Shown: piece after piece, positions 5,175 through 29,480 of the stretch
How positions within the stretch are numbered: the stretch's first letter is position 1
How the letters are laid out: each line of letters starts with the position of its first letter
Source: an uncultured Candidatus Saccharibacteria bacterium
Lineage (GTDB): Bacteria > Patescibacteriota > Minisyncoccia > CAYZDR01
Length of the DNA: 33,596 nt
NCBI GenBank assembly: GCA_964477425.1
Contig: CAYZDR010000002.1
Span: 1-33,596, forward strand
Reading direction: 5' to 3'
Made by a program: the position numbers and the translations under genes
The notes under the pieces: generated by a model
What the model saw: only the letters and a program-made list of their open reading frames with translations
What the model was told of the DNA's origin: nothing
Database searches by the model: none

Positions 5175-6317
<1,143 letters not shown>

Positions 6318-6363
6318 TCACCACTATCCTTGATATTCTTAATTCCAGCCCGCTGGCTGACGT

Positions 6364-12341: not shown

Positions 12342-15320
12342 TTACACTTTACCAATTTTCAAAGACCAGTTTTTAGCCTCCTTCTCAAAACTAAAATCAC
12401 CTTCCATATTTTCCTCCATTTTTTCTGCAAGAACTTCTCTTGCTATATATTCTCCAAAATTAGAAAATGCTTTTTTAATATCCTCATCATCAGAACTCCA
12501 TGAAACATTTATTCTATCATCAATCTCAAACCCCGCCTCTTTCCTCGCCTGCTGAATAGACCTTACAATCTCCCTAGCAACCCCCTCAACCCGCAACTCC
12601 TCCGTAATCTCTATATTCAAACAAACCGAAATCCCCCCATCTTCCACCATCACAGATTCGTCAGATTTACCTGCACCGTCATCGTCCCTTAATTCTTCAT
12701 TCTTAATTCTTAATTCTTTAATATTAATCTCGCCTTTAACTAATTCGACTAAATCATCCGGCAATACCCCCACTCCATTAACACTCATCTCCCCCAGTGG
12801 TTGTCTCACTTTAATTCCAGCTTTTGCTCTCGCCGCCAATCCTAATTCAACAATTTTTCTTGTCTTCGCCATCTGATCATTTAATTTTTCATCAATCAAA
12901 GATTCATCTGCAACTGGAAAATTTTCCAAGTGCACCGACTTGTCCGCCGTAGCTCCCGCAGGAGCGAAGGAGGATCCGCCCTCATGAGTTAACTCTGTAG
13001 ATCCAGTTTTCAAACCTCTGTAAATCATTTCTGAAATAAATGGAGTAAATGGTGCCATGACTTTGGATAATTCTAACAGGACAGTATACAAAGTTTGGTA
13101 AGCACTATTTTTATCTTCATCGCTTTCACTCTTCCAAAATCTCCTACGAGATCGGCGAATGTACCAATTAGACAAGTTATCAATAAATTCTGGGATTGCT
13201 CGGGTCGCCTTAACGACGTCATAGCCAACCATATTGTCATTCACTGTTTTTATTAAAGAATTTAATTTTGATATTATCCATTTATCTAATAGATTTTTTG
13301 AAAACTCTACTTCATCTTTTGGCTCCCAATTATCAACTACTGCATATGTATTAAAAAACGCAACAGAATTCCATAGTCTCATAAATACTCCTCGCTGAAT
13401 TTCTGCAATATCTTTTTCAGAAAAATTCATATCCTGAGCAGACATCAAAGGAGAAGAAAGAAAATAGAATCTCAAAGCATCAGCTGAATATTTTTCAAGT
13501 ACCTCATCTGGGGCAGTAAAATTTCCCAATGATTTTGACATTTTTCTTCCATCACTACCTGCAATAGTTCCAGTAACAACAACATTCTTGAAGGCCGGCT
13601 GATCAAAAATAGCAACAGAAATTACGTGCAATAAGTAAAACCATGCACGAGTCTGTGGAACATACTCAGAAATAAAATCAGTAGGAAAACTCTTCTCAAA
13701 TTTTTCTTTGTTCTCAAATGGATAATGAAACTGAGCAAATGGCATTGACCCTGATTCTAACCAGCAATCAAAAATCTGTGGAATTCTTTTCATTATACCT
13801 CCGCACTCATCACACTTAAATGTTACTCCGTCTATTTTTGGACGATGATAATCATCCAATCTGTCTTTAGATAATTTCTCTAGTTCATCATATGAACCAA
13901 TAATTTTTATATTTTTACAATCTTTCTCCTCACATTTCCAAACGGGCATTGCTGTTCCCCAATATCTGTCTCGAGAAATATTCCAATCTGGAGCACTTTC
14001 TATTCCTTTCTGGAATCTTCCTTCTTTAAGGTGCTTTGGAAACCAATTTATTTCTTGATTTTTTTCTAAAAGTTTTTTTCGAATTGTAGCAATATTTACA
14101 AACCATGCTGGCTGAGCTTTGTATATCATCTTGGAATGGCATCTATAACAATGAGGATAACTATGAGTGACTTCTTCCATTTTGAACAAATATTTATTTT
14201 CTTCTAACCATTGTACAATTTCTTTGTTAGCATCCCAGACATTTTTGCCTTTCCATTCTCCGTCAATAAACTTTCCCGCTTCATCAACATTTAAGATTAT
14301 TGGCAAACCTTTTTCTTTCCGAAGATTAAAATCATCTTCTCCAAAAGCAGGTGCAATGTGTACAATCCCTGTCCCGTCTTCAGCAGTAACAAAATCTCCA
14401 GAAACTACTTTATATCCATCTTGAATATCACTCTTAAAAACTGCTTCGTAATTTCTACCAACTAAATCGCTTCCTTCTATTTCTTCAATGACCTCATATT
14501 TTTCATCTTTCATAACATCGGTAATTCTATCTTCAGCCAAAATATATTTTTCTTCTCCATTTCTGATACTTACCACTTGATACTTAATATTACTACCGAC
14601 TGCCAATGCAACATTAGCCAGAAGAGTCCACGGAGTAGTTGTCCAGACAAGAAAATAAGTATTTTCCCAATCTTTAGCTTTCATCTTTACATATACGGTT
14701 GGATCGGTATCTTCCTGATAACTATTATCCATTGCAATTTCAAAATTACTAAGAGGCGTAGCACATCTAGGGCAATATAGTGAGATTCTTACATCTTCAT
14801 AAACTAACTTTTTGTCGTACAATTGTTTGAATGCCCACCAGACTGATTCCATATAATCTTTATCCATCGTTTTATAGGCATTCCTAAATTCTACCCATCG
14901 ACCAATTCTTCCAATAACATCTTCCCATTCTCCTGCAATTCTAGAAGTCTCTTCAAAACAAGTTTGATTGAATTTCTCAATTCCAACTTTGTCTTCAATA
15001 TCTTTTTTACTTTTCGTCCCCAATTTCTTTTCTACCATATGTTCAGCAGGCAATCCATGACAATCCCATCCCCAACGTCTTTCTACTTGATACCCTTTCA
15101 TTGTCCAAAACCTAGGAAAACAATCTTTGACAACAGATGAAAGAAGCGTCCCCCAATGTGGAACACCAGTGATGAATGGTGGACCATCGTAAAAACTATA
15201 CTGCTCCGCATCCTTCCTATTCTCTAAAGACTTTTCAAATATTTTATTTTCATTCCAAAAAGCCAGAACCTCTTTTTCCAGATCCGCTAATTTCTTTTTG
15301 TTATCTATTGGTTGAAACAT
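12342..15320 (-). CDS. ileS: Isoleucine--tRNA ligase (type 2, eukaryote-like)
   Basis: 992-aa ORF. Blocks: ..FYDGPPFITGVPHWGT.. (HIGH region), ..GWDCHGLP.., CP1 editing region, ..GRKMSKSLGN.. (KMSKS). Contains two in-frame repeat copies (listed separately). Confidence 0.95.
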   Translation of the reverse strand: MFQPIDNKKKLADLEKEVLAFWNENKIFEKSLENRKDAEQYSFYDGPPFITGVPHWGTLLSSVVKDCFPRFWTMKGYQVERRWGWDCHGLPAEHMVEKKLGTKSKKDIEDKVGIEKFNQTCFEETSRIAGEWEDVIGRIGRWVEFRNAYKTMDKDYMESVWWAFKQLYDKKLVYEDVRISLYCPRCATPLSNFEIAMDNSYQEDTDPTVYVKMKAKDWENTYFLVWTTTPWTLLANVALAVGSNIKYQVVSIRNGEEKYILAEDRITDVMKDEKYEVIEEIEGSDLVGRNYEAVFKSDIQDGYKVVSGDFVTAEDGTGIVHIAPAFGEDDFNLRKEKGLPIILNVDEAGKFIDGEWKGKNVWDANKEIVQWLEENKYLFKMEEVTHSYPHCYRCHSKMIYKAQPAWFVNIATIRKKLLEKNQEINWFPKHLKEGRFQKGIESAPDWNISRDRYWGTAMPVWKCEEKDCKNIKIIGSYDELEKLSKDRLDDYHRPKIDGVTFKCDECGGIMKRIPQIFDCWLESGSMPFAQFHYPFENKEKFEKSFPTDFISEYVPQTRAWFYLLHVISVAIFDQPAFKNVVVTGTIAGSDGRKMSKSLGNFTAPDEVLEKYSADALRFYFLSSPLMSAQDMNFSEKDIAEIQRGVFMRLWNSVAFFNTYAVVDNWEPKDEVEFSKNLLDKWIISKLNSLIKTVNDNMVGYDVVKATRAIPEFIDNLSNWYIRRSRRRFWKSESDEDKNSAYQTLYTVLLELSKVMAPFTPFISEMIYRGLKTGSTELTHEGGSSFAPAGATADKSVHLENFPVADESLIDEKLNDQMAKTRKIVELGLAARAKAGIKVRQPLGEMSVNGVGVLPDDLVELVKGEINIKELRIKNEELRDDDGAGKSDESVMVEDGGISVCLNIEITEELRVEGVAREIVRSIQQARKEAGFEIDDRINVSWSSDDEDIKKAFSNFGEYIAREVLAEKMEENMEGDFSFEKEAKNWSLKIGKV
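12691..12725. repeat. Heptamer tandem array inside ileS (AATTCTT CATTCTT AATTCTT AATTCTT TAATATT)
   Basis: 7-nt periodicity over 35 nt within the CDS. Translated on the - strand as ..NIKELRIKNEELR... Confidence 0.7.
12936..12986. repeat. GC-rich GCR repeat copy inside ileS
   Basis: CTTGTCCGCCGTAGCTCCCGCAGGAGCGAAGGAGGATCCGCC aligns with the intergenic copies at 5085..5113 and 17821..17853. Translated as ..HEGGSSFAPAGATADKS... Confidence 0.7.
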
Positions 15321-15322
15321 AA

Positions 15323-15616
15323 TTAGGATTTAATCTTAAATGGACGTTTATTAACCTCTAGTAAAATATCAAGTGTCGCATGTACTGAAAGATTATCGCT
15401 TGGTAAAAGAATTAAGCGATCATCTAATTGATTTAACAATGGACTTAAAAACTCATCAGCCCACGATGGTGACAATGTTGATATTCCAGAAAAATCTATT
15501 TCCAGTTCTTCATCTTTAGGAAGCTCGCTCAAGGTTGGCTGAAATGCTTTAAGTGCTTCACTCCCCAACTCTCGCGATATTAATGTTTTACCAAATTTTT
15601 CTAATTGTAACTTCAT
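15323..15616 (-). CDS. STAS-like domain protein (DUF4325 type)
   Basis: 97-aa ORF. ..LEIDFSGISTLSPSWADEFLSPL.. matches the DUF4325 hallmark (..DF.gV...sSF.DEf..). The stop codon lies 2 nt from the ileS start. Confidence 0.62.
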   Translation of the reverse strand: MKLQLEKFGKTLISRELGSEALKAFQPTLSELPKDEELEIDFSGISTLSPSWADEFLSPLLNQLDDRLILLPSDNLSVHATLDILLEVNKRPFKIKS

Positions 15617-15623
15617 ATATTTT

Positions 15624-16349
15624 CTAAAATTTAAATTCTATTTTCGCTAAACATCCACGCACAACATGTTGGCCACGATTGACATGAAATTCTTTATCAG
15701 ATCCCTGTATACGTACTTCTGCATCACCACTAGTAAAGAATAAATCAATTGGCCACTTCAGAACCACATTGCGAACAGTTTTAAGACCATTCCCGCGTTT
15801 TTCTGGCGCTCGCCCAGAGACAAATTCTGTAAATGCAACTTCCACTGCATCAACATGACTTGAAAGTTGAGGTTGAACACGACTTAATGTTTCCAAAATA
15901 CCTAATCCTCTATCGGCTAGAACGATAATACCTTTAGCAAGATCATATCCGAAAAATATTCCAGATGTATCCGGCCACTTCCCCAAATTGTGTGCAAACG
16001 AATTATCTCCAATCTCTCCGGCAATCAAAACAATTAGGGAATACAATTTTTCAAATCCAGACATCTGTTTGAGAACATTTTCCATTTTTGCCAATCGTGC
16101 ATTAAAATCTGAACTTGTCTGACAATAAAATTCACCGGGAAATTCAGTGCCATCCTGAATCCATTCGGATGCAAACTTCATTAAATCACTAGTAAAAATT
16201 TCCAGATCTTTTTCACGATAATATCTGTGAGTGCCACCATCTTTATTGATCGCCGTTAATTTACCGCTTTCATCCCAACGACGAAGTGTCTTCAAGGAAA
16301 CCTTGAGATATTCGGAAGCCTGACCAATTGTAAGTAATTTTTCTTTCAT
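15624..16349 (-). CDS. MerR-type HTH fused to a GHKL (RsbW/SpoIIAB-like) ATPase domain
   Basis: 241-aa ORF. N-terminus LTIGQASEYLKVSLKTLRRWDESGKL....GTHRYY is a MerR HTH. C-terminus has N-box EIGDNSFAH (E-x3-N-x3-H), G1 ADRGLGI (DxGxG) and G2 RGNGLKTV, in RsbW-like spacing. Confidence 0.7.
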   Translation of the reverse strand: MKEKLLTIGQASEYLKVSLKTLRRWDESGKLTAINKDGGTHRYYREKDLEIFTSDLMKFASEWIQDGTEFPGEFYCQTSSDFNARLAKMENVLKQMSGFEKLYSLIVLIAGEIGDNSFAHNLGKWPDTSGIFFGYDLAKGIIVLADRGLGILETLSRVQPQLSSHVDAVEVAFTEFVSGRAPEKRGNGLKTVRNVVLKWPIDLFFTSGDAEVRIQGSDKEFHVNRGQHVVRGCLAKIEFKF

Positions 16350-16355
16350 ATGTTT

Positions 16356-16384
16356 ATAATACCATACTTTTCAAATCTATACAA
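16356..16384 (-). promoter_or_regulatory. Candidate sigma70-type promoter (TTGTAT-17-TATTAT) ending 6 nt before the ATG
   Basis: - strand reads TTGTAT agatttgaaaagtatgg TATTAT aaacat ATG. This geometry predicts a leaderless or near-leaderless mRNA. Confidence 0.45.
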
Positions 16385-16394
16385 GTATCGACCA

Positions 16395-16450
16395 AATCTA
16401 CCCAAAAATACATCAATCTACCCATTTTTCACCTGAAACTACCCATTTTT
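16395..16450. promoter_or_regulatory. Three phased direct repeats AA(T/A)CTACCCA + A/T5 (iteron/operator-like)
   Basis: CTACCCA at 16398, 16418 and 16439, giving 20- and 21-bp spacing. Lies upstream of the MerR::GHKL gene at the left edge of the accessory island. Confidence 0.5.
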
Positions 16451-16701
16451 AACTAATTTTACAGTCTTTAAAACTTATCTCTGTTCTGTTTGGTTTACAC
16501 CATTCACTAATTTGGTGTCAAGTTCTCTTTACACCAAATTTTTGTACCCTTATTTTCCGCATAGAATAAAGGTTTTTACCCCTCTTTTGTTGTTTGGTAA
16601 TGTCGTTTTTTGAGGTGTTACGTAGTATGTTACGTAACAAAATGTTTTAATTCACCTGATATTTGAAATTAATCAAATTAAAAAGATGTTCATACACCTT
16701 T

Positions 16702-17178
16702 TTAAATCTTAATATGATTTGGTTTAATAGCTACTATACACACGTATCTCTCCACGAAATAAGCAAATATCCTTCCGCTGTCAGAAAATCTAATTTCCCT
16801 AATTTCCACATCGGGGGATAACCCATCAAATAAAGATTTATAGTTACCTCCCTTTTTCACGTTATCGTGTATCAATTTACTACTAGGTAATTCCCTTATA
16901 GTTGTTTCATTTATTCTCCGCAATTTTTCAATCAACTGTTTTGAGTCTTTTCCGTAAAGATCTTTTAGACCACATTGTCCTATCTTGTAATGAGCAAATG
17001 AAAACAAAAAGTTTTCTTTCAATTTATCTTCATAGTCAGGGACTTCCGCTCGAATTGCTACGCTTTGATCAATTTGTTTTGTTCTCTCAAATTTTCCTGC
17101 CTCTATGTTTATGTGCCAATCTTTTGATTTCGATTTTCTTTCCGCTTTTCTATTTTTATTTTTTGACCTTCCTCCCAT
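16702..17178 (-). CDS. Putative toxin partnered with the PanA antitoxin (uncharacterised; C-terminus RelE/HigB/Gp49-like by pattern only)
   Basis: 158-aa ORF overlapping the upstream DUF4065 gene by 23 nt. Very basic N-terminus (MGGRSKNKNRKAERKSKSK). The C-terminal ..EIREIRFSDSGRIFAYFVERYVCIVAIKPNH resembles the ..lyElR....RilY.....i.il....H end of RelE-fold toxins. Confidence 0.5.
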   Translation of the reverse strand: MGGRSKNKNRKAERKSKSKDWHINIEAGKFERTKQIDQSVAIRAEVPDYEDKLKENFLFSFAHYKIGQCGLKDLYGKDSKQLIEKLRRINETTIRELPSSKLIHDNVKKGGNYKSLFDGLSPDVEIREIRFSDSGRIFAYFVERYVCIVAIKPNHIKI

Positions 17179-17632
17179 AATATTCTTTCATTTCCTCCTT
17201 ACTAATAATAGCATCGGAAGCATCATAAGCAACACAACCACTGCGAGCATTTTGCCATGGTTCTTCATTGTGAGACAAAATTTCCAAATATGTCGCATCG
17301 TATTTCCCGTATACTTTCCAAACTTCGTCTAATATTTTTTTATCGTTATCGGTCAGTGCTCTAAAATCACTTTCCTGTGTTTTCATATCAATAGTAGCAC
17401 TACCAAATCTTTTAAATTCCCTGTAAACTTTTGGAATAGCAGGACCATGTACCCACGCTTCAAAATCCTCTAAAAATAAATCTTTCTTACGAAAAACTAA
17501 GTTCCATGCTTGTGAATAGTATAGAAGCTTTTGCAATTTTTTATTGGATAAATCTTTTTGTCGAGAATTATTGTTTTTTGCAATAAAATATTTGATTGTT
17601 GCCATTAATTTTGGCGACATATTTTGTGACAT
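17156..17632 (-). CDS. Panacea/DUF4065 (SocA/GepA-like) antitoxin-domain protein
   Basis: 158-aa ORF. ..KLQKLLYYSQAWNLVFRKKDLFLEDFEAWVHGPAIPKVYREFKRFG.. is the DUF4065 core (KL.KLlYy.q.w.....lf...feAW..GPv.p.vY). Confidence 0.8.
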   Translation of the reverse strand: MSQNMSPKLMATIKYFIAKNNNSRQKDLSNKKLQKLLYYSQAWNLVFRKKDLFLEDFEAWVHGPAIPKVYREFKRFGSATIDMKTQESDFRALTDNDKKILDEVWKVYGKYDATYLEILSHNEEPWQNARSGCVAYDASDAIISKEEMKEYYGRKVKK

Positions 17633-17820
17633 ATATTTTTTAAATTTTTGTTTTTATTAAGATATCCAATACATTTATATTGTACTTCTTTTTTGTCATA
17701 AATTCAATATTTATTTTTTGATTTGGTACTGTGGTCAACCACTTCTTGATACATTAATTTATTTCCAGTCTTTTATCAAAATTCCATCACCATATTTTTT
17801 GGCAACAACTTTTTGATTGA

Positions 17821-17853
17821 CTTGGTCCGCCGTAGCCTTTGGCGAAGGTGGAG
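17821..17853. repeat. GC-rich GCR repeat copy
   Basis: CTTGGTCCGCCGTAGCCTTTGGCGAAGGTGGAG, followed by a small hairpin CCGCCTTTGGGTGG at 17877..17890. Confidence 0.65.
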
Positions 17854-17920
17854 TGTTAGTTTATTTATTATTTTATCCGCCTTTGGGTGGAAATGTGCAT
17901 TTTAATGTACATTTTATTTT

Positions 17921-17945
17921 AATTCACAATTTAAATTGTGAATTC
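17921..17945. terminator. HP1 palindrome (AATTCACAATTTAAATTGTGAATTC), cassette-end hairpin
   Basis: Begins 14 nt after the stop of ORF 17959..18699. Same palindrome as 22412..22437 and 23207..23232, but lacks the first G and the U-tail on the - strand. Confidence 0.5.
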
Positions 17946-17958
17946 TTTTGTTATTCAC

Positions 17959-18699
17959 TTAATGAATATACTTATAAATTTCTTCACCTATTGATGAAAG
18001 TAAAACATTGCTACTATTACTCAAGTAAAGCATCCTGTTACTTTCCAATTCAAGATATGCGTGTGCGATTCTTTGTCTATGTTTTATATCTTCAATACTC
18101 TTACTCTGAGCAAATTTGTCAGCCATTTCAATACTCCAATTTTTAGAAACTGTTTGCCCACTTACCGTAGACCCTCCAGAAAATTTTCCTCCTCTCCAAA
18201 CCTCAAAATTACTCAAAATAATTAGTGCTTGCGGACTTAATTTTTCTACTTGAGATAACATATAATCATATTCTTCAAACATTTTCTCAAGATCATCAGA
18301 ACTGGAAATTTTTTTCAGTACTTCTGCTAACGTCCCTGTGTATTCTTCGTTGAAATTACCACGATTTAGTATCCTTATAATTTTATTAAAAAGTAGCAAA
18401 CCTGCATTACTAGTAAGTAGCTTTTCTAATTTATTCTTAAAATCTTCATTCAAATCTAATCGATTTTGGAATTCATTAAGTAGAATTAACGCACGAACGG
18501 AATCGACCTCATTTTTATATTTTTGAGGAATACTAATGATTTTACTTATTTCATTAACCATTGGTAATATTTCTACGACCGTTTTCCCAAGTGTTTTTGC
18601 AAGAATTTCTATTCGTTTTCTTTTGGAAAGCTGTATATTATCTAATACATTTTTATTCTTTGTTATATTAGTTTGTTTTTTTATTATTTCTTTTTTCAT
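17959..18699 (-). CDS. Hypothetical protein, predicted mostly alpha-helical; last gene of the DpnI-like/ATPase-DUF4435 operon
   Basis: 246-aa ORF whose start lies 4 nt after the stop of the ATPase gene. No catalytic motif recognised. A faint resemblance of ..DDLEKMFEEYDYMLSQVEKLSPQALIILSNF.. to Abi-alpha-type proteins is not enough for a call. Confidence 0.6.
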   Translation of the reverse strand: MKKEIIKKQTNITKNKNVLDNIQLSKRKRIEILAKTLGKTVVEILPMVNEISKIISIPQKYKNEVDSVRALILLNEFQNRLDLNEDFKNKLEKLLTSNAGLLLFNKIIRILNRGNFNEEYTGTLAEVLKKISSSDDLEKMFEEYDYMLSQVEKLSPQALIILSNFEVWRGGKFSGGSTVSGQTVSKNWSIEMADKFAQSKSIEDIKHRQRIAHAYLELESNRMLYLSNSSNVLLSSIGEEIYKYIH

Positions 18700-18703
18700 A
18701 TAA

Positions 18704-20233
18704 TTATTTTTTATTCTGACAATTCAATTTTAAACTGATATCAGGCAAATATTTTTTTAGAATATCTAAAATTTCTTTTCTTTTTTCGAATACAATAAAA
18801 TTTAAAACTAAATCTCTATATCCATTATTTGTAAGGTCAAGTTTGTCTTGAACTAGCTTCACTAATCCCTTATAAGGATATTCCCGTAAAATCTCCATGA
18901 TATCATCCCCTTCTAGTAATACCACATTTGAAAATTCTTGATCCATCTCGCTAAATATTGATGTTTTAAAACTTTGATATCCCTTATCATTATTTATAAT
19001 ACTGAATTTTTTGTTTATCAAACACTGTATGCGATATTTAATCGCCTTAAATTTAATAGAGTCCTTTTTTTCAATATAATGTTTTTTAATTTCCGCTATT
19101 ATTTCGTCTTTCTTTCCACTTTTTAAAAGGTACTCGCAGACTAATTCAATAATTTCAGGAATCAAAAACAAATTTTCTACTTTATTTAAACCAAGACAAA
19201 ACACATTATTTTTTTCTAACGAACTAATTTGTTCTTCGGGACGAAAATCTCTGTCGATTAGACCAAATACTTTCTTGCCATGAAGATCTGCATTATTCCT
19301 TAATCCTTTGACTGATTCAATTACTTTTTCACACGATTCACGAGGAATAATTGTAAAATTACCATAGAATGATTGATACATTTGCACATCTAGAGAACCC
19401 TTATCTCCTTCGACAAATAAAATCGACTTTCTACTACCTAGTATTTCCAGATAAAGGTTTTCTGGTATAACTTCATTAGGAGTTAACTCTTTCCATTCCC
19501 ATTTATTATTTTTATAATCTTGCATCCAAATTCGCTTACTAATAGGCTTATTTACCGCAAAATCAAGATCGTGAGTTATATATACAAAAATACAATCTTT
19601 TCTTTGTACTTCGAGTTTACTCCACAATCTCACCATTAGAGATTTGTGCAAATGGAGTTCCGGCTCATCAATAATTAAAATACAATTTTGATCAGCCAAT
19701 AAAATTTGCGAGATAAGATACAGACCAACTTTTTCACCATCACTCATTTCCATACCCGAAAATTCATTTTCCTCACTTTCAGCCCTCACCTTATCGTTTT
19801 TCAACTTTAATTTTCTATATGAAAAAATAGAATCCCAAATATCTATAACTTTTTCTTTAATTGACTGGGAAACAAATATTTTGTTTTTTGAAACACGTGA
19901 TTCCTTTACATATTCAGAATTCCTTCTAGACTCTTGGGCAAATAACGAAATGAGAACTTGTTGATAATCATTTTGTGGCTGAATAGAAGGTTTATTTTTG
20001 TAGCTATTTTTTAACTTTGCTGAAGCTGTCTCAAAATCCTGTTTTTGTACATTTTCATCAAGTTGTAAATACCTTTGTGCAGAAATTCTCTTTGAATTAC
20101 TATTATTCCCTTCAATACATGATCCAAAGCGCGTTTTTCCCGCTCCGTTGGCACCAACAATAACCATATTTTTTTCAATTGTTATGGTTTCGTATTCATT
20201 TGTATTTGATTTTGGAATTTTGATATTTCTCAT
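18704..20233 (-). CDS. Minimal ABC-type ATPase fused to a DUF4435/Toprim-like (OLD/AriB-like) domain
   Basis: 509-aa ORF. Walker A GANGAGKT (K33), signature-like MSDGEK, Walker B CILIIDEPELHLH, H-loop ITHD. Then ..ILFVEGDKGSLDVQMY.. (Toprim Glu) and ..FGLIDRDF.. (DxD) as in DUF4435. Confidence 0.8.
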   Translation of the reverse strand: MRNIKIPKSNTNEYETITIEKNMVIVGANGAGKTRFGSCIEGNNSNSKRISAQRYLQLDENVQKQDFETASAKLKNSYKNKPSIQPQNDYQQVLISLFAQESRRNSEYVKESRVSKNKIFVSQSIKEKVIDIWDSIFSYRKLKLKNDKVRAESEENEFSGMEMSDGEKVGLYLISQILLADQNCILIIDEPELHLHKSLMVRLWSKLEVQRKDCIFVYITHDLDFAVNKPISKRIWMQDYKNNKWEWKELTPNEVIPENLYLEILGSRKSILFVEGDKGSLDVQMYQSFYGNFTIIPRESCEKVIESVKGLRNNADLHGKKVFGLIDRDFRPEEQISSLEKNNVFCLGLNKVENLFLIPEIIELVCEYLLKSGKKDEIIAEIKKHYIEKKDSIKFKAIKYRIQCLINKKFSIINNDKGYQSFKTSIFSEMDQEFSNVVLLEGDDIMEILREYPYKGLVKLVQDKLDLTNNGYRDLVLNFIVFEKRKEILDILKKYLPDISLKLNCQNKK

Positions 20234-20255
20234 AACTTTTATATTAATTGACTTT

Positions 20256-20411
20256 TTACTCCCTATCCGTCACAATCACGTTTTTATCCAAATTCCCCTC
20301 CAAAAAAACAGGATCAACTACAGAAATATTATCAGCCATAACAACCACAACATCATCCCCATGCTTCTCCCTAATATCCTCCAACCTTTTAATAAAATCT
20401 TTTAATTTCAT
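20256..20411 (-). CDS. Small acidic hypothetical protein, 51 aa; below the ORF-track cutoff
   Basis: Hand translation: MKLKDFIKRLEDIREKHGDDVVVVMADNISVVDPVFLEGNLDKNVIVTDRE*. The ATG lies 4 nt after the DpnI-like stop; its own stop lies 22 nt before the ATPase start. Locally higher GC than true spacers. Confidence 0.45.
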   Translation of the reverse strand: MKLKDFIKRLEDIREKHGDDVVVVMADNISVVDPVFLEGNLDKNVIVTDRE

Positions 20412-20415
20412 ACAC

Positions 20416-21177
20416 TCAAATTAATTTATATTTACCACTACTCACAAAATCTAAATATCCTTTGTCCCTAAGAAACTGTAACTGTTGCCTTATTTTATCC
20501 TTAATGTGTTTATTCTCTGGATATTTTTTACTCAAGATATTTTCAAAAGAATAAATATCTTGGAGTGTAAACTCTGACTTATTTAATTTATCAATACAAC
20601 CCATAACATCCAAAATCCATCCCTTTAGATCCGCCTTTCCAGTTTCTCGCAAAAATAAAGTCTTCTGCCAATTTTTTAAAACTTTTTCTTTATTTTCTAC
20701 TACCTTATTTTTGATATAAAATATTTTCCCACTATTAGGAATACTAGTTAAATCTATATTACACATTATATAGTTGGGTCTATTTGGTATTCCTTTATTC
20801 CTTTTTACAATCATTGCTGGAACGAAGAAATGTTTTGGGACAACGACAAAATCTAAAACTGCATAATTACTTACATCGTAACTTAAAAGAAAAAGATTAG
20901 GATTATTTTGGCTTTGCAATCTCTCAAGCATAGTTTTATAAGCGCCATCGGGGACCTTTTTACCTATGCTATTTCTTTTACTTTTCAATTCATAATCTTC
21001 TTTACAGTTTGAGCAATAAAAATCTGCTACTGGTCTATTATTTTCATAATTTTTAATACTAGTTCCACAATTTGGACAAAATATCTCATTATCAACCCAA
21101 TTTTCAGATAAAATTCTAATTTTGTGGGAATTGCTTTTATAAGAATCTGCTAATTGTGTATCTAAAATTGTTTGCAT
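20416..21177 (-). CDS. DpnI-like methyl-directed (GmATC-type) restriction endonuclease
   Basis: 253-aa ORF. Blocks ..YKSNSHKIRILSENWV..FCPNCG...NNRPVADFYCSNC.EDYELKSK..., ..DGAYKTMLERLQSQNNPNLFLL.Y.. and the C-terminal winged helix ..HIKDKIRQQLQFLRDKGYLDF...GKY.. match my memory of S. pneumoniae DpnI block for block. Confidence 0.8.
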   Translation of the reverse strand: MQTILDTQLADSYKSNSHKIRILSENWVDNEIFCPNCGTSIKNYENNRPVADFYCSNCKEDYELKSKRNSIGKKVPDGAYKTMLERLQSQNNPNLFLLSYDVSNYAVLDFVVVPKHFFVPAMIVKRNKGIPNRPNYIMCNIDLTSIPNSGKIFYIKNKVVENKEKVLKNWQKTLFLRETGKADLKGWILDVMGCIDKLNKSEFTLQDIYSFENILSKKYPENKHIKDKIRQQLQFLRDKGYLDFVSSGKYKLI

Positions 21178-21208
21178 AATTTATATCTATATTTCAATTC
21201 TACCTCTC

Positions 21209-21276
21209 ATTATACCCCTTTTATGCAATAAAACAAGCAAAATACAGAGAAATACTATATAATACATCCCCCAAAA
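21209..21276 (-). promoter_or_regulatory. Junction leader/promoter module, copy A
   Basis: 68 nt homologous to 22343..22411 and 23138..23206. - strand carries TTGTTT-16-TATAAT about 31 nt upstream of the DpnI-like ATG. Confidence 0.55.
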
Positions 21277-21303
21277 TGCACCATATTGAATGATACGGCA
21301 CAT
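21276..21303 (-). terminator. HP2 hairpin (terminator of the RhuM gene)
   Basis: ATGCACCATAT-TGAATG-ATACGGCACAT. The three non-Watson-Crick positions are G-U wobbles only in the - strand RNA (A-C on the + strand). Flanked by an A-run and a T-run. The perfect copy is at 23268..23295. Confidence 0.6.
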
Positions 21304-21313
21304 TTTTATAAAA

Positions 21314-22336
21314 TTACTTCTTTTGCTTTTTATTATCAGCTAAAAATCTTTTAACTTCCCGATCAAAATCAGAAATATAGTTTTTATCCTGCTCAACCCT
21401 AAAAACATTATACTCTGCTTCTGCTTTTATCTTTGCTTCCTCTGCTGATACTTTCCCCTTATCTTCCAATATTGGATAATTAGACAGTTCCAAAAAACGA
21501 TGCAAGAAAACAGCCCAATCATTCATATTCATGATGATTCCTTTTTTTGCTCTGTTTTCTGCCAAATCTAAATATGCTGAAACAATTCTATTTAACTCAT
21601 CAATATGATTTTTATTAAGATAATTTTTGGCAATCAGGACATCCCTCTTTAAAATTTTACCCTTCGGAGCATTTTTCCATGTATTCAACCCCATGAAAAT
21701 CTTTTTTGCATCTGCTTTTTCATAAATAATTTCTGCTGCAGTTTTACCTGTAATAGCCCAATGTAGTTTATTTTGAACTGTAGCAAAAAACTCTTTTGTT
21801 AAATCCTCGTTTTTATCATAATCTGCTGAAAGAGCATAGATATCTGTAATTTTTTGATAAAATCTTCTTTCACTTGTCCGAATCTCTCTTATTCTTTCTA
21901 AAAGTTCTTCAAAATAATCTTTGCCGAAATGTTTAATTTGCTTCATCCTCTCATCATCCATAGCGAATCCTTTGATAATAAACTCTTTCAAAACATCTGT
22001 TGCCCAAATTCTAAAATTGGTCGCTCTTGTAGAATTTATTCTGTAACCAACAGCAATAATAGCATCTACTGAGTAGAATTTTGTTTTATATAATTTACTA
22101 TCATCTGCAGTTGTCAAGAAATCCTTGACAACTGCTTTATCATCAAGTTCCTTCTCTCTGAAAATATTTTGAAGGTGTAAACTCACATTTTGCTTTGTTG
22201 TCCCAAATAATTCTGCCATAATTTTTTGAGTAAGCCACAGAGTGTCTTCAGCAAAAAAAACATCAATATTTACTTTACCTTCATCTGTTTTGAAGATAAC
22301 GAAATTGTTTAATTTTTGTAATTCTTGTTTTTCCAT
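21314..22336 (-). CDS. RhuM family protein (virulence/defence-island associated)
   Basis: Start trimmed to Met23 of the track ORF (MEKQELQ..), because the upstream 22 codons are the repeated junction leader. ..IFKTDEGKVNIDV.F..DTLWLTQ..MAELFGTTKQNVSLHLQNIF.E.EL...V.K.FLTTA.D.K.Y.TKFY..DAIIAVGYRINS.RAT.FR.WAT..LKEF.IKGF.MDDER is the RhuM core. Confidence 0.85.
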   Translation of the reverse strand: MEKQELQKLNNFVIFKTDEGKVNIDVFFAEDTLWLTQKIMAELFGTTKQNVSLHLQNIFREKELDDKAVVKDFLTTADDSKLYKTKFYSVDAIIAVGYRINSTRATNFRIWATDVLKEFIIKGFAMDDERMKQIKHFGKDYFEELLERIREIRTSERRFYQKITDIYALSADYDKNEDLTKEFFATVQNKLHWAITGKTAAEIIYEKADAKKIFMGLNTWKNAPKGKILKRDVLIAKNYLNKNHIDELNRIVSAYLDLAENRAKKGIIMNMNDWAVFLHRFLELSNYPILEDKGKVSAEEAKIKAEAEYNVFRVEQDKNYISDFDREVKRFLADNKKQKK

Positions 22337-22342
22337 ATTATC

Positions 22343-22411
22343 ATTATATCCCCTTATCACTACAAAAACAAGCAAAATACAGAGGAATACTATATAATAC
22401 ATCCCCCAAAA
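22343..22411 (-). promoter_or_regulatory. Junction leader/promoter module, copy B
   Basis: - strand reads TTGTTT-17-TATAAT-gataat-ATG(RhuM). 7 mismatches over 69 nt against copy C by hand alignment. Confidence 0.55.
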
Positions 22412-22437
22412 GAATTCACAATTTAAATTGTGAATTC
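22412..22437. terminator. HP1 perfect 26-bp palindrome GAATTCACAATTTAAATTGTGAATTC
   Basis: Flanked by CAAAA and TTTTTT, so it looks like a bidirectional terminator. On the - strand it is followed by TTTTGGGGG and the leader module. Confidence 0.55.
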
Positions 22438-22520
22438 TTTTTTGTCTTCTCTATTCATGAATCATCTCCTTCGCATAACATCAACGAGAATTGTGGTTAC
22501 ATTAGACTAATATTGTCGAC

Positions 22521-22548
22521 TTGACAGGTTCATATAGTCTTGTATAAT
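22521..22548 (+). promoter_or_regulatory. Consensus sigma70-type promoter TTGACA-16-TATAAT on the + strand
   Basis: Both hexamers are perfect. It points at the 3' end of the minus-strand NYN gene; only ~50 nt separate it from a hairpin plus T8 run. Confidence 0.55.
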
Positions 22549-22563
22549 AAGAATATCAATACG

Positions 22564-22606
22564 AAAGGGTCCCTGAGATCGTAAGATCAAAGGTCCCCTT
22601 TTTTTT
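22564..22606. terminator. Extended hairpin + T-run (bidirectional terminator; NYN gene 3' end and candidate + strand sRNA)
   Basis: AAAGGG-TC-CCT-GA-GATC [GTAA] GATC-AA-AGG-TC-CCCTTT, with symmetric 2x2 internal loops, followed by TTTTTTTT on the + strand. Confidence 0.55.
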
Positions 22607-23117
22607 ATTTTTTTATTTGATGTTTTATGTTAATCAAGTAATCAAAGTAAACTCTGGTTATACTTTTATACAGTGAAGATGCAAACTTCTTATTTGGAAA
22701 AAGTATTTTTTCAAATTTCTCTTCTTCAATCAAAAAATCTACTAGCATTTTATAATCCCCATCACCCGACACAAGAACTATTTTATCAAATGGTTCTTTT
22801 TTATATAATCTTTTCATAATATTAAAGATAATATCAGAATCAACATTGCCTTTTTTCTTTCCAAGCATTGCCGTATTATGTTTACGAAATACTAAAATAA
22901 AGTCAGCACTCTGAATTTCTTCATATAAGTCTTGGTACTTTTCATCAACACATCCCAAATAATAATATGCTTTTTGAACATTATATTTTTTGAGCAAATA
23001 TTTCCTAAATTTTGCAAGATTGATTTTCCATGCTGGGCTGTCTGATCTTGTTCCCATATACAAATTCTGACCGTCTATAAAAGCAATATTATTTTTTTGT
23101 TGTTTATTAGTATTCAT
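22605..23117 (-). CDS. NYN domain (LabA/DUF88-like, PIN-fold) putative ribonuclease
   Basis: 170-aa ORF. ..IAFIDGQNLY.., ..KGNVDSDI.. and ..LVSGDGDY.. are the three acidic NYN blocks. Confidence 0.85.
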   Translation of the reverse strand: MNTNKQQKNNIAFIDGQNLYMGTRSDSPAWKINLAKFRKYLLKKYNVQKAYYYLGCVDEKYQDLYEEIQSADFILVFRKHNTAMLGKKKGNVDSDIIFNIMKRLYKKEPFDKIVLVSGDGDYKMLVDFLIEEEKFEKILFPNKKFASSLYKSITRVYFDYLINIKHQIKK

Positions 23118-23137
23118 AATTTTAACTTTATACTTCT

Positions 23138-23206
23138 ATTATATCCTTTTATCACTACAAAAACAAGCAAAATACAGAGAAATACTATATCATACCCACC
23201 CCAAAA
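23138..23206 (-). promoter_or_regulatory. Junction leader/promoter module, copy C
   Basis: 69 nt, near-identical to copy B. The TATAAT lies 20 nt upstream of the NYN ATG. Confidence 0.55.
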
Positions 23207-23232
23207 GAATTCACAATTTAAATTGTGAATTC
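23207..23232. terminator. HP1 perfect palindrome, third copy
   Basis: GAATTCACAATTTAAATTGTGAATTC flanked by AAAA and TTTTTT. Confidence 0.55.
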
Positions 23233-23267
23233 TTTTTTAACTGCATCAAAATCAACACAACTAAAAA

Positions 23268-23295
23268 ATGCACCGTATTGAATGATACGGTGCAT
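23268..23295. terminator. HP2 hairpin, perfect copy, with no gene upstream of it on the - strand
   Basis: ATGCACCGTAT-TGAATG-ATACGGTGCAT flanked by A6 and T5. Followed at 23304..23375 by a degenerate fourth copy of the leader module. Confidence 0.5.
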
Positions 23296-23391
23296 TTTTA
23301 TAATCCATCCCTCGTTTCTTCTAAAAACAAACAATAAAATAAAGAAAAATACTATCCACTTCTCCACAACCCTTGCCTATTATATCCACTA

Positions 23392-23420
23392 TTGACATTG
23401 TGTATAACTTTTGCTACAAT
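23392..23420 (+). promoter_or_regulatory. Near-consensus promoter TTGACA-17-TACAAT on the + strand
   Basis: It points at the 3' end of the minus-strand DUF3800 gene. About 25 nt downstream is a hairpin plus T-run. Confidence 0.5.
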
Positions 23421-23445
23421 AAAATTATCAAGTATTTGAAAAAAG

Positions 23446-23476
23446 CGTTGGCTCGATTGGCCAATGGCTTTTTTCT
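23446..23476 (+). terminator. Hairpin CGTTGGC-tcgattg-GCCAATG + GC + TTTTTTCTTTTT
   Basis: 7-bp stem containing one G-U pair that is only valid in the + strand RNA (C-A on the - strand). This argues that the + strand transcript uses it. Confidence 0.5.
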
Positions 23477-23483
23477 TTTTACC

Positions 23484-24296
23484 CTATTTTTCATCATCCT
23501 TAATTATCTTATCATCTCCTCCCGATCTTATATTATCGTCATTCTCATCGTCATTATGAAAATGAATGTTAAAATTATAATTTCTGAAATCCTCGGTTAA
23601 ATTATCAACACCCAAATTATTCTTGAATGCCTTTATAAACTGTGCCTTGTACTGTGAAGACTGGTCAATAATTTTTTCTTTTAAGAGTAGCTCGTAATTA
23701 ATTGCTCCGATAATTAAATCTGTCATTTGTAATAAATCATTTGTTTTAGAATCTAGACGACAGACACCAGCAATAGCTAATCTTTTAAACTTATTATTAA
23801 GATGGTTTTTAATGTTCACCTCAAATTTATTTCTTTTTGGAGTAACTACATTATCAGCCAAAACTATCAAAACCTCATTTTTCCTCAAATTCCCCTCTAG
23901 TAAATGTTTGGTAATTTGTTCATAGGCGATAAATGGATCACTATGAAATTCGTTTTTGAAATAATCGCTTTTTTTATTAATTGTATAGGACGAAAAACAA
24001 ATACTACGAGTCTGAAAAAATGCATCTAAAACTTCCATGGCAATCTTTACTTTTACCTTATTTAAATTATTAAATTTAAGTTCCCACCAAAAATTATTTT
24101 TTTCTCTAATGTATCTGATTTTCTGTTGAAGATAATATGGTTGTGAACATTTTACCATTCCAACAGTAAAATGTGGATGTGTTTTGATATCAAGAGTCCC
24201 TGATTCATCTAAAAAACAAAATGGCGTCCAAATATCTTTATAATCTCCGAGGGTTAACCCATGATTTTTTTCTTTACCAAAAATTTTATTTAACAT
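23484..24296 (-). CDS. DUF3800 family protein
   Basis: 270-aa ORF. N-terminal ..FCFLDESGT.. and C-terminal ..NDLLQMTDLIIGAI.. are the two hallmark DUF3800 blocks. Acidic tail. Confidence 0.72.
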   Translation of the reverse strand: MLNKIFGKEKNHGLTLGDYKDIWTPFCFLDESGTLDIKTHPHFTVGMVKCSQPYYLQQKIRYIREKNNFWWELKFNNLNKVKVKIAMEVLDAFFQTRSICFSSYTINKKSDYFKNEFHSDPFIAYEQITKHLLEGNLRKNEVLIVLADNVVTPKRNKFEVNIKNHLNNKFKRLAIAGVCRLDSKTNDLLQMTDLIIGAINYELLLKEKIIDQSSQYKAQFIKAFKNNLGVDNLTEDFRNYNFNIHFHNDDENDDNIRSGGDDKIIKDDEK

Positions 24297-24384
24297 ACAT
24301 TGTTTACCTAAAAATTATTACTACTGTTTAATTTCTTAAACAAATTTTTCCCATTTTTATTTAGCACGACTGACATCTATCCCA

Positions 24385-25908
24385 CTAATCCCCTCTCTGC
24401 ATCCTCTCAATCTCATCTTTAATCACCATCATCGCCTTACAATCATCCTTATTGTAAATTAAAATCCTTTTCAAAACAGCAGGATCCTTTGTCTCTACAT
24501 ACCTATTATACCACTCAATTGAAGCAGCACCAGACGGATTTTCATCCTCCCATTGAAAACCCAAAAACTGGGCAATTGATTTAACAGAATAACTCGTTAA
24601 CGGCCAATCTGTTTCCTTGAGAATATGCTTTGTATACAGATCAACAGTATTTGGATTATCAAAAAAATCATTAACATCTTTCATAGATACAACATCTGGA
24701 TATCTTTTTTGAAGACGCCTATAAACAGACTTTTCATGAGGAGAATAATAATAAACAGAAAAATCATTCTTTGGAAGAGAATTTATATAATCCCAAAAAT
24801 CGCTCCATGCTTTTTTCTCTGATTCTCTTGTATTCTCTTTAGCCGTAAAATCAATAAATTTTTCCTCCCCACCCTTTCTCTGATAAACTCCGTGTAAATA
24901 CACAAATTCTTGAGTTGGATCATCTTCAATATCAAAAAACAATTCATAACTTGTTTTTGGGAAAACGATTTGATTGTAAAAAACTGGTTTTTTTGTTTGA
25001 TAAAATATTTTAGCACGCTTGATTGCTTTTAATAAACTATTTTCCCCTACCCTGTAAAGAAATTCTTTATTCCCCATCTGAATTTCTTTTTTCTTCTGCT
25101 CCATTATTTCATCCACATCCATATTCAAAAAATCATCAATATCGTCAATAAAAAGATCTTCGTTTATTCTATCTCTAATACTTCTCCCAAAACAAAAAAT
25201 ATTAGTTAGATCTTTTGTTTCTTGACACCACTTTTTACAACTCGCATGCCATGGACAAATTTTACAAGTACCTAACAAAGCAGGTTTATTTTTGTTTTTC
25301 CCAGCTATTAACAATTCAACATTTCCTTTAGTCGTCCTGTAAAATTCCCACCATGTTCTCTTGTCTCTCAACCCCATTTGAGAATTTAGATCATACACCA
25401 CTTTATCTGTATTAACATCAATTATCGTCCCTGTATCGTGTGTAGCAAATTCAAGTTTTTTTAATAATTCATTGTATAGACAAAGTTGGACAGCATAATG
25501 TTTTTTTGGCTTTCCTTCTTCCCCAAGCTCTTCATCAGCACTATCAAATCCCATCCCAGACTTAATATCAATTGGCATATAACTGCCATTGGGTAATTTT
25601 TTCAGGAGATCCGGAATACCCAAAACATTGTCATATTTAAGTACACCTTGATAAATCAAAGGTGCTTTATCTTTCATTGCTTGAATTGTTTTTTCAAAGC
25701 GTTCGTCTAATGTACCTTTTTCTAAATCTACAAAATCTCCCAGTTTGGAAACAACATCTTTTTCATGTTTAACACCTTTTTTCCATAAAAGCTGAATAAA
25801 ATCATTTGGTTCTTGTGATTTTTCTTCTTGTGGTCCATAAACATCCCGCCAAACTTTGTGAGGACATTTTATATAATCATAAAGTTTTGATGCTGTTATA
25901 TATTGCAT
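24385..25908 (-). CDS. RecB-family nuclease, TM0106 type (Cas4-like PD-(D/E)XK + 4Cys cluster, C-terminal RNase H-like YprB-type domain)
   Basis: 507-aa ORF. ..ITASKLYDYIKCPHK.., ..GIPDLL...YMPIDIKSG.. (D..D-x-K), then C-x2-C-x5-C (TCKICPWHASC). C-terminal half has ..LFFDIEDDP.., ..YYYSPHEK.. and ..YNKDDC... Confidence 0.78.
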   Translation of the reverse strand: MQYITASKLYDYIKCPHKVWRDVYGPQEEKSQEPNDFIQLLWKKGVKHEKDVVSKLGDFVDLEKGTLDERFEKTIQAMKDKAPLIYQGVLKYDNVLGIPDLLKKLPNGSYMPIDIKSGMGFDSADEELGEEGKPKKHYAVQLCLYNELLKKLEFATHDTGTIIDVNTDKVVYDLNSQMGLRDKRTWWEFYRTTKGNVELLIAGKNKNKPALLGTCKICPWHASCKKWCQETKDLTNIFCFGRSIRDRINEDLFIDDIDDFLNMDVDEIMEQKKKEIQMGNKEFLYRVGENSLLKAIKRAKIFYQTKKPVFYNQIVFPKTSYELFFDIEDDPTQEFVYLHGVYQRKGGEEKFIDFTAKENTRESEKKAWSDFWDYINSLPKNDFSVYYYSPHEKSVYRRLQKRYPDVVSMKDVNDFFDNPNTVDLYTKHILKETDWPLTSYSVKSIAQFLGFQWEDENPSGAASIEWYNRYVETKDPAVLKRILIYNKDDCKAMMVIKDEIERMQRGD

Positions 25909-25947
25909 ATTTATTTACAAAATCTCCGAGATACCTCCGAGATTTTC

Positions 25948-25989
25948 GTTATATGTTATAAGTTATGCGTTACAAGTTACACGTTATAC
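25948..25989. repeat. Heptamer array GTTATAT GTTATAA GTTATGC GTTACAA GTTACAC GTTATAC
   Basis: 6 x 7-mer (GTTAYNN). The last unit contains the GT4 stop codon (25984-25986). Preceded by an 8-bp A/T-rich hairpin AAAATCTC...GAGATTTT at 25919..25946. Confidence 0.7.
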
Positions 25990-27144
25990 GGTAATTATTT
26001 TATCATAAACATCCAATGTCTCCCTTGCACACTTCTCCCATGAAAACTCTCCTGCCCTATTACAGCTCTTTTCACACTGACTTTTTATATCATATTTATT
26101 TAATGAAAATTTTAACATTTTATCCACGATACTATTAACATCATAAGGGTTCACAAACTCTGCCGCATCTCCAGCAACTTCTTTTAGAGAATCTATATCT
26201 GAGGCAATAATTGGAAGGCAACACGCCATCGCCTCAACAACAGGAGAACCAAACCCTTCATAAAGAGGTATAAAAATGAAAGCACACGACGCCTGAAAAA
26301 GTGGAGCCATATCTTCAGGAGGAATGTACCCTGTAAATATCACATCTTTCTCAATTCCCAAATCAATCGCCATACTTCTAATTTCATCTGCCATCCAACC
26401 ATCTTTCCCCGCAATTGCCAGCTGACACGCCTCTGAACTTTGATCTTTGGCTTTCTTAAATGCCTCCATTAAACGTGGAATATTTTTTACTGGTTCAATT
26501 GTTCCCATATACAGTATGAACCGATCACTTAAATTATATTTTTTTCTAATCTCCTTAATTTTATCTTCATCTCTATAATTGCAGATACGCTCATCAATTC
26601 CTTCATGAACAACAGCGATTTTTTCTTCAGGAATTTCTAATAAAGCCATGGTATCTTTTTTCAAAGAATTAGAAGAAACTATCAAATTCAAATGATCAGA
26701 ATTTGCTTTCAGTACTTTAATAATTCTCTTGGCTCTTTTCTGAATTTCATCTGGATAAAGTTCAGGATATTTAGTACATCCCACTCCTCTTCCCGTAACG
26801 ATAATCTGACCAGAAAATTCAGGTGGGACAGCGGAGCTTAATCCGATGATGTGTAAAATATCCAAATGTTCTTGATTGAAAAATCCACCTAACATTATAT
26901 CCCTATACCGATTTGGCAAGAAACGTCTGTATTTATTGTATGGAAAAAATTTTACTGAAAAATTATCTTTCTTAAATTTATCAATATCTTTTTCCCTGAC
27001 CGTTGAATCCAGAAAAATTACATACTCATTTTTTTTATCAATTTTTTGTAGATGTCGCAACAAATGATAAGTGTAATGTCCTACACCTATGTTTCCCTTT
27101 TTTTCTGGGTTTAATATTGATCTTGCGTCAATTCCTATTTTCAT
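25984..27144 (-). CDS. Glycosyltransferase family 4 (GT-B, group 1)
   Basis: 386-aa ORF. The C-terminal ..[24 protein letters not shown].. is the E-x7-E region of GT4 enzymes. Confidence 0.85.
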
Positions 27145-29424: not shown

Positions 29425-29445
29425 AATTTCGTCAATTACATTCGT

Positions 29446-29480
29446 CATTGATAATTGTTCATTGAACATTGATCATTGAA
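29446..29480 (+). repeat. H7 heptamer array (CATTGAT AATTGTT CATTGAA CATTGAT CATTGAA)
   Basis: Ends 3 nt before the tmRNA 5' end. Same orientation relative to the RNA gene as the array next to tRNA-Ser. Confidence 0.8.

Follow-up and report, generated by a model that had tools for sequence, protein, structure and literature searches.

Gene content of the island

The 33,596-nt window analysed here is the entire contig CAYZDR010000002.1 (C2) of a fragmented metagenome-assembled genome (MAG) of an uncultured Candidatus Saccharibacteria bacterium (GCA_964477425.1, hereafter G000). In this window, a promoter-like module of about 69 nt stands in front of several unrelated genes and is itself preceded by one of two hairpins, HP1 and HP2 (Table 1). 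The genome comprises 0.80 Mb with 34% G+C, distributed over 68 contigs with masked stretches, and its size and gene content agree with a position among the Patescibacteria. The relatives cited by name below are two congeners (G001 and G002) and a genome of the same family (G003).

Every gene of the region of interest is on the minus strand, within a 10.7-kb island of accessory and defence genes delimited by a glycosyltransferase gene (25984-27144) on one side and by ileS (12342-15320) on the other side. The label "accessory" refers to the Pfam names and, for the island only, to the absence from congeners. In G001 the glycosyltransferase gene and ileS are adjacent and the island is absent (L034, G001:C1 4560-4700). 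In G002 the gap is filled otherwise, with pieces of type I restriction-modification (RM) systems, a ParA-like gene and a copy of HP1 (L033, L014). Since the locus is empty in G001, differently filled in G002 and occupied by 10.7 kb in G000, it is a hot spot of variable DNA between congeners. A preliminary description of the window had considered that an absence of variation between strains would speak against shuffling; at the level of the locus the congeners do vary.

The DpnI-like operon, also called DpnI/OLD-like, gives Pfam matches with DpnI (2e-71) and, for the ATPase gene, with DUF4435/SMC_N. The start of the RhuM gene is the ATG at position 22339, and the longer open reading frame (ORF) that runs through the module is spurious, because three RhuM paralogues match the protein from its first residue onwards when this ATG is taken as the start.

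Table 1. Features of the island and copies of the module (window positions, unless a contig of G000 is named).
Feature	Position	Strand	Remarks
Variable accessory/defence island	15321-25983	-	Between glycosyltransferase gene and ileS
HP1 copy 1	17921-17949		Just 3' of the DpnI-like operon, after the AAATGTGCATTTTAATGTACATTT palindrome; no leading G, no U-run on the minus strand
Four-gene operon	17959-21177	-	DpnI-like (20416-21177), 51-aa ORF, ABC-ATPase/DUF4435 (18704-20233), 246-aa protein
Module A	21209-21276	-	Precedes the DpnI-like operon; GGGGG, three GTATT 10 nt apart, TTGTTT-16-TATAAT; 31-nt leader to the DpnI ATG
HP2 copy 1	21273-21307	-	3' of RhuM, abuts module A; imperfect stem
RhuM-family gene	21314-22339	-	Pfam Virulence_RhuM, 2e-108
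Module B	22343-22411	-	Precedes RhuM; TTGTTT-17-TATAAT
HP1 copy 2	22408-22441		34-nt perfect palindrome; -17.1 kcal/mol; U4 on the minus strand, U6 on the plus strand
NYN convergent unit	22521-22610	+	TTGACA-16-TATAAT (12/12 promoter match), then hairpin RNA of about 55 nt, U8
NYN-domain gene	22605-23117	-	Pfam NYN, 7.6e-19
Module C	23138-23206	-	Precedes NYN; TTGTTT-17-TATAAT
HP1 copy 3	23203-23236		Repeat-finder match
HP2-HP1 spacer	23237-23263	-	Part of the 159-nt composite common to the window and C35
HP2 copy 2	23264-23299	-	Perfect stem; -21.6 kcal/mol
Module D	about 23304-23375	-	Decayed, -10 is GATTAT; runs directly into HP2, no gene
Second convergent unit	23392-23476	+	TTGACA-17-TACAAT with TG (11/12), hairpin, T-run; overlaps 3' end of DUF3800 gene
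Module E	C35 end, 55-nt overlap into C51		Precedes 1095-aa PLD/SNF2 helicase and Eco57I-like methylase; -10 is TAAAAT
Module F	C22 end, pointing outward		Divergent from phosphoglycerate-mutase-like gene; contig stops before a downstream gene
Module G	C35:6444-6473		-35 to -10 part only; precedes AntA-like gene, directly after radC-like gene

Copies of the promoter-like module

The module forms a family of seven copies (A to G) in G000, which were aligned in gene orientation. The three copies located in front of the DpnI-like operon, the RhuM gene and the NYN gene (A, B and C) had been reported in the preliminary description; sequence reading and the repeat finder return the same coordinates and the same minus-strand arrangement TTGTTT-16/17-TATAAT. 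Copies B and C differ at 7 positions, as previously counted, and are 93.07% identical over 101 nt including HP1 (E=2e-36) and 93.1% identical over 58 nt without it. The identity is 97.9% between A and B, over 47 nt only, and 94.8% over 58 nt between B and E. The 139-nt stretch composed of module B and HP1 (BC139, 22305-22443) matches contig C35 with 96.7% identity over 90 nt. With E-values from 1e-18 to 2e-39, these repeats are far beyond chance. The left edge of the homology falls between TTTT and GGGG in A, B, C and E, which are the copies located directly behind HP1 or HP2, and the right edge lies just past the -10 box, A and E sharing in addition a part of the leader.

The -35 box, the spacing and the -10 box are retained in A, B, C, E and G, with hexamers 16 or 17 nt apart, within the 16-18 nt of promoters of the sigma-70 type. 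The -10 boxes of A, B and C end exactly at 21209, 22343 and 23138 on the minus strand. Upstream of the -35 box are found three GTATT repeats exactly 10 nt apart, a spacing of one helical turn; this phased triplet is confined to the module copies (4 observed, 0 in shuffles). Relative to the start codon, the module extends approximately from -9 to -75 in B, from -32 to -100 in A, from -22 to -90 in C and approximately from -100 to -170 in E. Sigma-70-type promoters initiate transcription about 7 nt beyond the -10 box. As the ATG of the RhuM gene (B) and of the AntA-like gene (G) is found 6 nt after the TATAAT, the corresponding mRNAs would be leaderless. An alternative promoter combining TTGTGA of HP1 with TATTAT of the module was rejected, because copy A is preceded by HP2 and lacks that -35 box.

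The five downstream units that can be identified are all accessory or defence units: the DpnI-like operon, RhuM, NYN, AntA (the AntA-like gene of C35 was identified by reading its N-terminal sequence) and the PLD-SNF2 helicase with its Eco57I-like methylase. None is a housekeeping gene, contrary to what is expected of a common promoter used throughout the genome. These units belong to different Pfam families, and tblastn searches among the island proteins gave no cross-matches; the earlier statement that one junction precedes non-homologous genes is therefore borne out by Pfam and by the absence of paralogy. The module was not found in the upstream regions of the three RhuM paralogues, nor in 60 relatives including both congeners, nor, by exact-pattern scans, in collections of metagenome and viral contigs. 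Module copies sit at contig ends, which indicates that the assembler broke at this repeat; no contig-end overlap leading on from copy F was found. The junctions match no Rfam family.

HP2, the composite block and copy D

The two copies of HP2 are 92% identical and carry runs of U4-U6 on the minus strand. Copy 1 folds with -15.5 kcal/mol in the minus-strand RNA versus -5.5 kcal/mol in the plus-strand RNA: its three imperfections are G-U pairs in the former and C-A oppositions in the latter. The wobble observation behind the earlier argument for a terminator acting in the transcript is correct.

Upstream of NYN, the window carries the succession HP2-spacer-HP1-module, and the same block is found in C35 in front of the helicase gene, with 92.5% identity over 159 nt. 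The genes flanking this block differ on both sides, C35 having upstream an antA-like gene that the window does not have. HP2 and the HP2-spacer-HP1 composite thus recur in C35, and a degenerate form occurs in C5 beside a gene whose N-terminal sequence is type I HsdM-like. When a deletion of the antA-like gene of C35 is modelled between the flanking 8-nt repeats ATAAAAAT, the product aligns across the junction to copy D followed by HP2, the left part of this alignment being weak. Because of this match, copy D, which precedes no gene, is likely a deletion scar, as judged from the alignment.

The dispersed palindrome HP1

HP1 is an AT-rich perfect palindrome of 24-34 bp with the core AATTCACAATTTAAATTGTGAATT, bordered by short runs of A/T. 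Its three copies in the window are 100% identical over 29-34 nt. The foldings range from -9.8 to -18.9 kcal/mol with 3 G-C pairs, and two copies show U4 followed by GGGG. The positions attributed to HP1 and HP2 were recovered, with the reservation that HP1 at 17921 has no leading G and shows an A-rich sequence instead of a U-run on the sense strand. An 11-codon ORF (MNREDKKEFTI, 22423-22458, minus strand) that terminates within HP1 is preceded, at a distance of 7 nt, by a good ribosome-binding site (GAAGGAG); this ORF probably arose by chance or is what remains of a lost gene.

The 24-nt core has 10 exact copies in G000, of which nine are intergenic beside accessory genes (RM, toxin-antitoxin and others). 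In addition to the three island sites, copies adjoin a type I HsdR gene, an HTH-Panacea gene, the AntA/helicase junction and a DUF2326 gene close to an rve transposase, as well as an uncharacterized gene beside an XRE/ImmA pair. Two copies located 454 nt apart (C19:4295-4772) bracket a 56-aa AbrB/SpoVT-like gene and an array of heptamers; this small hairpin-bounded unit has a type I HsdR gene on one side and a tRNA on the other. The tenth copy is in frame in a prmC-like ORF (C61:908-931 in the ORF 310-1239), where it reads ..IHNLNCEL... It is also in frame in the prmC of G002 and present as a decayed version in that of G001 (L038, L039, L040). In G003, prmC carries its own GC palindrome at the site of HP1 and a second copy further along, and lineage-specific palindromes thus occupy one common spot in this core gene.

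Among 185,579 species genomes, the 26-mer of HP1 was found only in G002, which contains at least 5 copies with 100% identity. The positions in G000 and G002 are non-orthologous: after one and the same tRNA, G002 has HP1 followed by an island and G000 has a GC-rich hairpin followed by other genes. Exact-pattern scans detected no HP1 in viral contigs; in metagenome contigs the palindrome occurs mostly in contigs of the congener species, and no module variants are found among them. As HP1 is identical at different sites while the genes are 80-95% identical, it has either spread recently or is under strong constraint. HP1 is therefore a genus-wide REP-like (repetitive extragenic palindromic) dispersed palindrome that travels with variable, mostly defence DNA and is not specific to the junctions, of which the preliminary description had made it a component.

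The NYN gene and its convergent small RNA

Homologues of the NYN protein are found in G002, with 78% amino acid identity over the aligned part (the copy has an internal deletion), and in G003, with 82% identity. The gene and its 3' flank are kept in both genomes. Since the upstream DNA there is unrelated to the module, the module was joined to NYN in the lineage of G000. The NYN gene of G002 is immediately preceded by an AntA fragment, an arrangement compatible with AntA and NYN having been neighbours at an earlier time.

NYN is separated from HP1 by 160 nt that do not constitute an empty spacer. These 160 nt are occupied by a convergent unit on the plus strand, omitted from the earlier model of the junction, in which the promoter is followed by ACGAAAAGGGAUCC...GGAGCCCUUUUCUUUUU. 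A covariance model of this RNA, built from 16 copies, matches at 30 of the 30 NYN loci (including L043-L071), which come from many genera, and nowhere else in 178 kb. A TTGAC(A/T) -35 box is found at a fixed distance in essentially all these loci, the outer stem shows compensatory changes, and the NYN stop codon mostly lies inside the hairpin. The RNA matches no Rfam family. It represents a candidate cis-antisense or antitoxin-like partner of the predicted NYN RNase, and its conservation across genera is a new result. The conserved transferable unit is thus NYN with its small RNA, and the module is a later addition upstream of this unit.

A second convergent unit is found at the 3' end of the DUF3800 gene (Table 1). 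Its fold has -19.0 kcal/mol and its design resembles that of the NYN unit.

Other repeats, transposase and recombinase genes

The genome of G000 is rich in repeats, 9.4% of its bases having a non-self blastn match, an unusually high content for its size. Among the matches listed by a palindrome scan are several further families of perfect palindromes besides HP1. Long composite inverted repeats made of heptamers of the CAATGAT/CAATTAA type were also observed, for example at C60:1-303, C41:4670-4865 and C55:2190-2351. In the window such repeats are located at 134-170, 5411-5461, 6361-6397 and 29443-29479, and some of them adjoin tRNA-Ser and the tmRNA. Concerning the 51-aa ORF of the DpnI-like operon, a paralogue with 62% identity is encoded at C47:80-229, on a contig that also contains a RhuM paralogue.

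G000 contains one single-copy HUH/Y1 gene resembling the REP-associated tyrosine transposases (RAYT), at C13:9593-10186, with a Y1_Tnp match and the motifs HiHGii and YYEH. The palindrome associated with this gene is the GC-rich GGGGCAATTCAYGAATTGCCCC with a GTAG flank, present in 4 copies in G000 and in 6 copies in G003. In each of the genomes G000, G002 and G003, a GC-type palindrome (GGGCAATTCRYGAATTGCCC or GGGTAATTCATGAATTACCC) is contained in the RAYT gene or adjoins it: it is located in frame inside the gene in G000 and G003 and, in a related form, just upstream of it in G002. HP1 was not found at any of these three RAYT genes. The gene of G000 has GGGGCAATTCACGAATTGCCCG in frame (..GAIHELP..), and the same palindrome is found at C23:3946, C30:2926 and C50:2256; GGGGCAATTCATGAATTGCCCC is present 6 times in G003, once within the RAYT gene.

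Only two proteins of G000 (278 and 317 aa) match Phage_integrase. Since G002 retains the two with unchanged lengths, these tyrosine recombinases are probably Xer proteins. No integron integrase was found in G000.

Origin of the repeated junctions

The explanation that we favour, with somewhat better than even confidence, is that the module is a portable sigma-70-type promoter which, together with REP-like terminator hairpins, owes its spread and reshuffling to recombination among the copies of the junction. The module would act as a moderately strong promoter, its upstream element being AT-rich and phased, and would drive whichever gene follows. HP2, as an intrinsic terminator in the minus-strand RNA, and less clearly HP1 would end or insulate the transcription of the preceding unit. 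Blocks of 90-160 nt with 92-98% identity are an ample substrate for homologous recombination, and may recombine by this route or by gene conversion. Such events would place a common promoter-terminator block before newly joined genes, swap neighbours and at times delete a gene, leaving a scar such as copy D. Of the two possibilities raised in the preliminary description, cassette shuffling or a portable promoter-terminator element, the general idea is retained: the block shared with C35 and the variable locus argue for it. A dedicated cassette system finds no such support, whether from a recombinase, from terminal inverted repeats or target-site duplications, or from attC features.

This situation, a real reuse of promoter and terminator in a variable defence island, corresponds to a known kind of phenomenon rather than to a new mechanism. 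Putative mobile promoters (PMPs) have been defined as sequences that lie upstream of non-paralogous genes in one genome, in a window of -150 to -50, and share 80% identity or more over 50 nt or more (Matus-Garcia, Nijveen, van Passel 2012; PMC3575422). The module shows this identity over this length and its downstream genes are non-paralogous; by these published criteria it counts as a family of putative mobile promoters, HP1 being a repeat of the REP-like kind. Contrary to the described PMPs, the promoter is here combined with repeated hairpins into a composite junction, is found only with defence and accessory genes and in a genome of the Candidate Phyla Radiation (CPR), and, in A, B and C, lies closer to the start codons than -150 to -50.

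Several observations weigh against this explanation. TTGTTT corresponds to only 4 of the 6 positions of the -35 consensus, and promoter-like matches in this AT-rich region are no commoner than in shuffles (59 found, 56 expected). Copy F has no readable downstream gene, since contig C22 ends there. For HP2, three transitions would all give G-U pairs by chance in about 1 case in 4 to 1 in 8, so that the statistical support drawn from them is weak. On the sense strand HP1 is a weak terminator: its stem has 3 G-C pairs, the U-run of two copies is limited to U4 and the copy at 17921 has none. Its full identity across two species exceeds what a terminator needs, and points to mobility or protein binding. 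The variation between congeners was seen at the level of the locus, which falls short of the movement of a cassette at a single junction. Promoter and terminator activity, finally, we infer from the sequence, as we do the leaderless starts and the mechanism of recombination.

An unlikely alternative is that the module marks a regulon: the 35 conserved nt that precede the -35 box, with their three phased GTATT repeats, would be the binding site of one transcription factor, and selection for co-regulation of defence genes, more than recent copying, would keep the copies alike. The upstream half is indeed at least as conserved as the spacer between the -35 and -10 boxes, the phasing of GTATT resembles that of direct-repeat activator sites and all the genes driven are defence or accessory genes. 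However, the similarity also covers non-binding positions and the hairpins (159 nt, 92%), which favours common descent over convergence. Moreover, a search for sites with the GTATT triplet outside the module gave none, near homologues of NYN in relatives are devoid of the module and no candidate regulator is linked to it. Regulation by one factor and copying can coexist.

We regard as quite improbable that the hairpin with the module, or HP1 alone, constitutes a non-autonomous mobile element of the REP/REPIN or Correia type, with an outward promoter, moved by RAYT or another transposase. In favour of this are the RAYT-like HUH/Y1 gene, the several families of identical palindromes, the palindromes in frame in prmC and in the RAYT gene, and the identical HP1 copies at non-orthologous sites in two species. 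As in the REP/REPIN-RAYT systems (PMC3116915, PMC5581495), many identical short palindromes are located mostly in intergenic positions at gene ends and the RAYT-like gene is in single copy. But the repeat that accompanies this gene is the GC-rich GGGGCAATTCAYGAATTGCCCC and not HP1, which is AT-rich, perfectly palindromic, mostly found singly and not as an inverted doublet, and present once in frame in a core gene. The HP1-like sequence of prmC is old, as seen from its decayed version in G001. A role of RAYT for HP1 is possible but unsupported. With the Correia elements of Neisseria (cited in PMC3575422) the junctions share the character of dispersed intergenic repeats supplying promoters and terminator-like hairpins. 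Contrary to them, the module is asymmetric and shows neither terminal inverted repeats nor target-site (TA) duplications, according to the repeat finder and to the seven-copy alignment. The module is also limited to 7 copies in one genome.

A more far-reaching proposal, to which we give little credence, is that HP1, HP2 and the module are the sites of a hairpin- or dif-type system, based on a domesticated RAYT or on Xer, that captures defence genes, fits them with a ready-made terminator-promoter adaptor and shuffles them. If true, this system would be a functional analogue of integrons in CPR bacteria.

A site-specific cassette system, with HP1 and HP2 as the sites at which a recombinase inserts and excises cassettes as in integrons or Xer dif modules, is highly improbable. 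As in integron arrays, unrelated co-oriented genes are separated by repeated hairpin-forming junctions; one pile-up of junctions has no gene (copy D), HP1 marks island edges by conserved anchors in G002 (tRNA, ileS), any 28-bp HP1 core fits an 11-6-11 layout and two Xer-like recombinases exist. Contrary to integrons, there is no IntI, the copies are few and every unit brings a promoter of its own. The sites named attC are imperfect hairpins with R''/L''-L'/R' boxes and extrahelical bases, whereas HP1 is perfectly palindromic and shows neither such bulges nor R/L boxes. No RYYYAAC...GTTRRRY pair bounds the junctions, as checked by reading only. The Xer dif modules of Acinetobacter plasmids (PMC6449649) likewise contain accessory genes, including toxin-antitoxin pairs, bounded by palindrome-like sites of about 28 bp, but these pdif sites come in alternating orientation and have XerC and XerD arms that differ from each other, around a 6-bp centre, whereas HP1 is symmetric and chromosomal. 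The two Xer-like genes of G000 are single-copy and conserved in the congener.

The possibility that the module is not a promoter and encodes a short hydrophobic leader peptide (MYYIVFLCILLV...) is scarcely credible: A, B and E do share the position of an ATG and a hydrophobic ORF of 18-26 codons, in frame into RhuM in B, but this small ORF was rejected because a stop occurs within 3-5 codons in C and F, the GGGGG that abuts the ATG leaves no room for a ribosome-binding site, and the RhuM paralogues align from the downstream ATG.

Significance

CPR bacteria are uncultured and have tiny genomes, and how they express newly acquired genes is little understood. The present locus provides a concrete example, in which a 0.8-Mb genome has no fewer than five mutually unrelated units of defence or accessory genes behind one portable promoter block with repeated hairpins. 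It suggests that recombination between short regulatory repeats builds and prunes defence islands, and it supplies candidate promoter and terminator parts for this lineage. The wider setting, so far undescribed, is a CPR family that has a RAYT gene and is rich in REP-like palindromes, some of which lie in frame within core genes.

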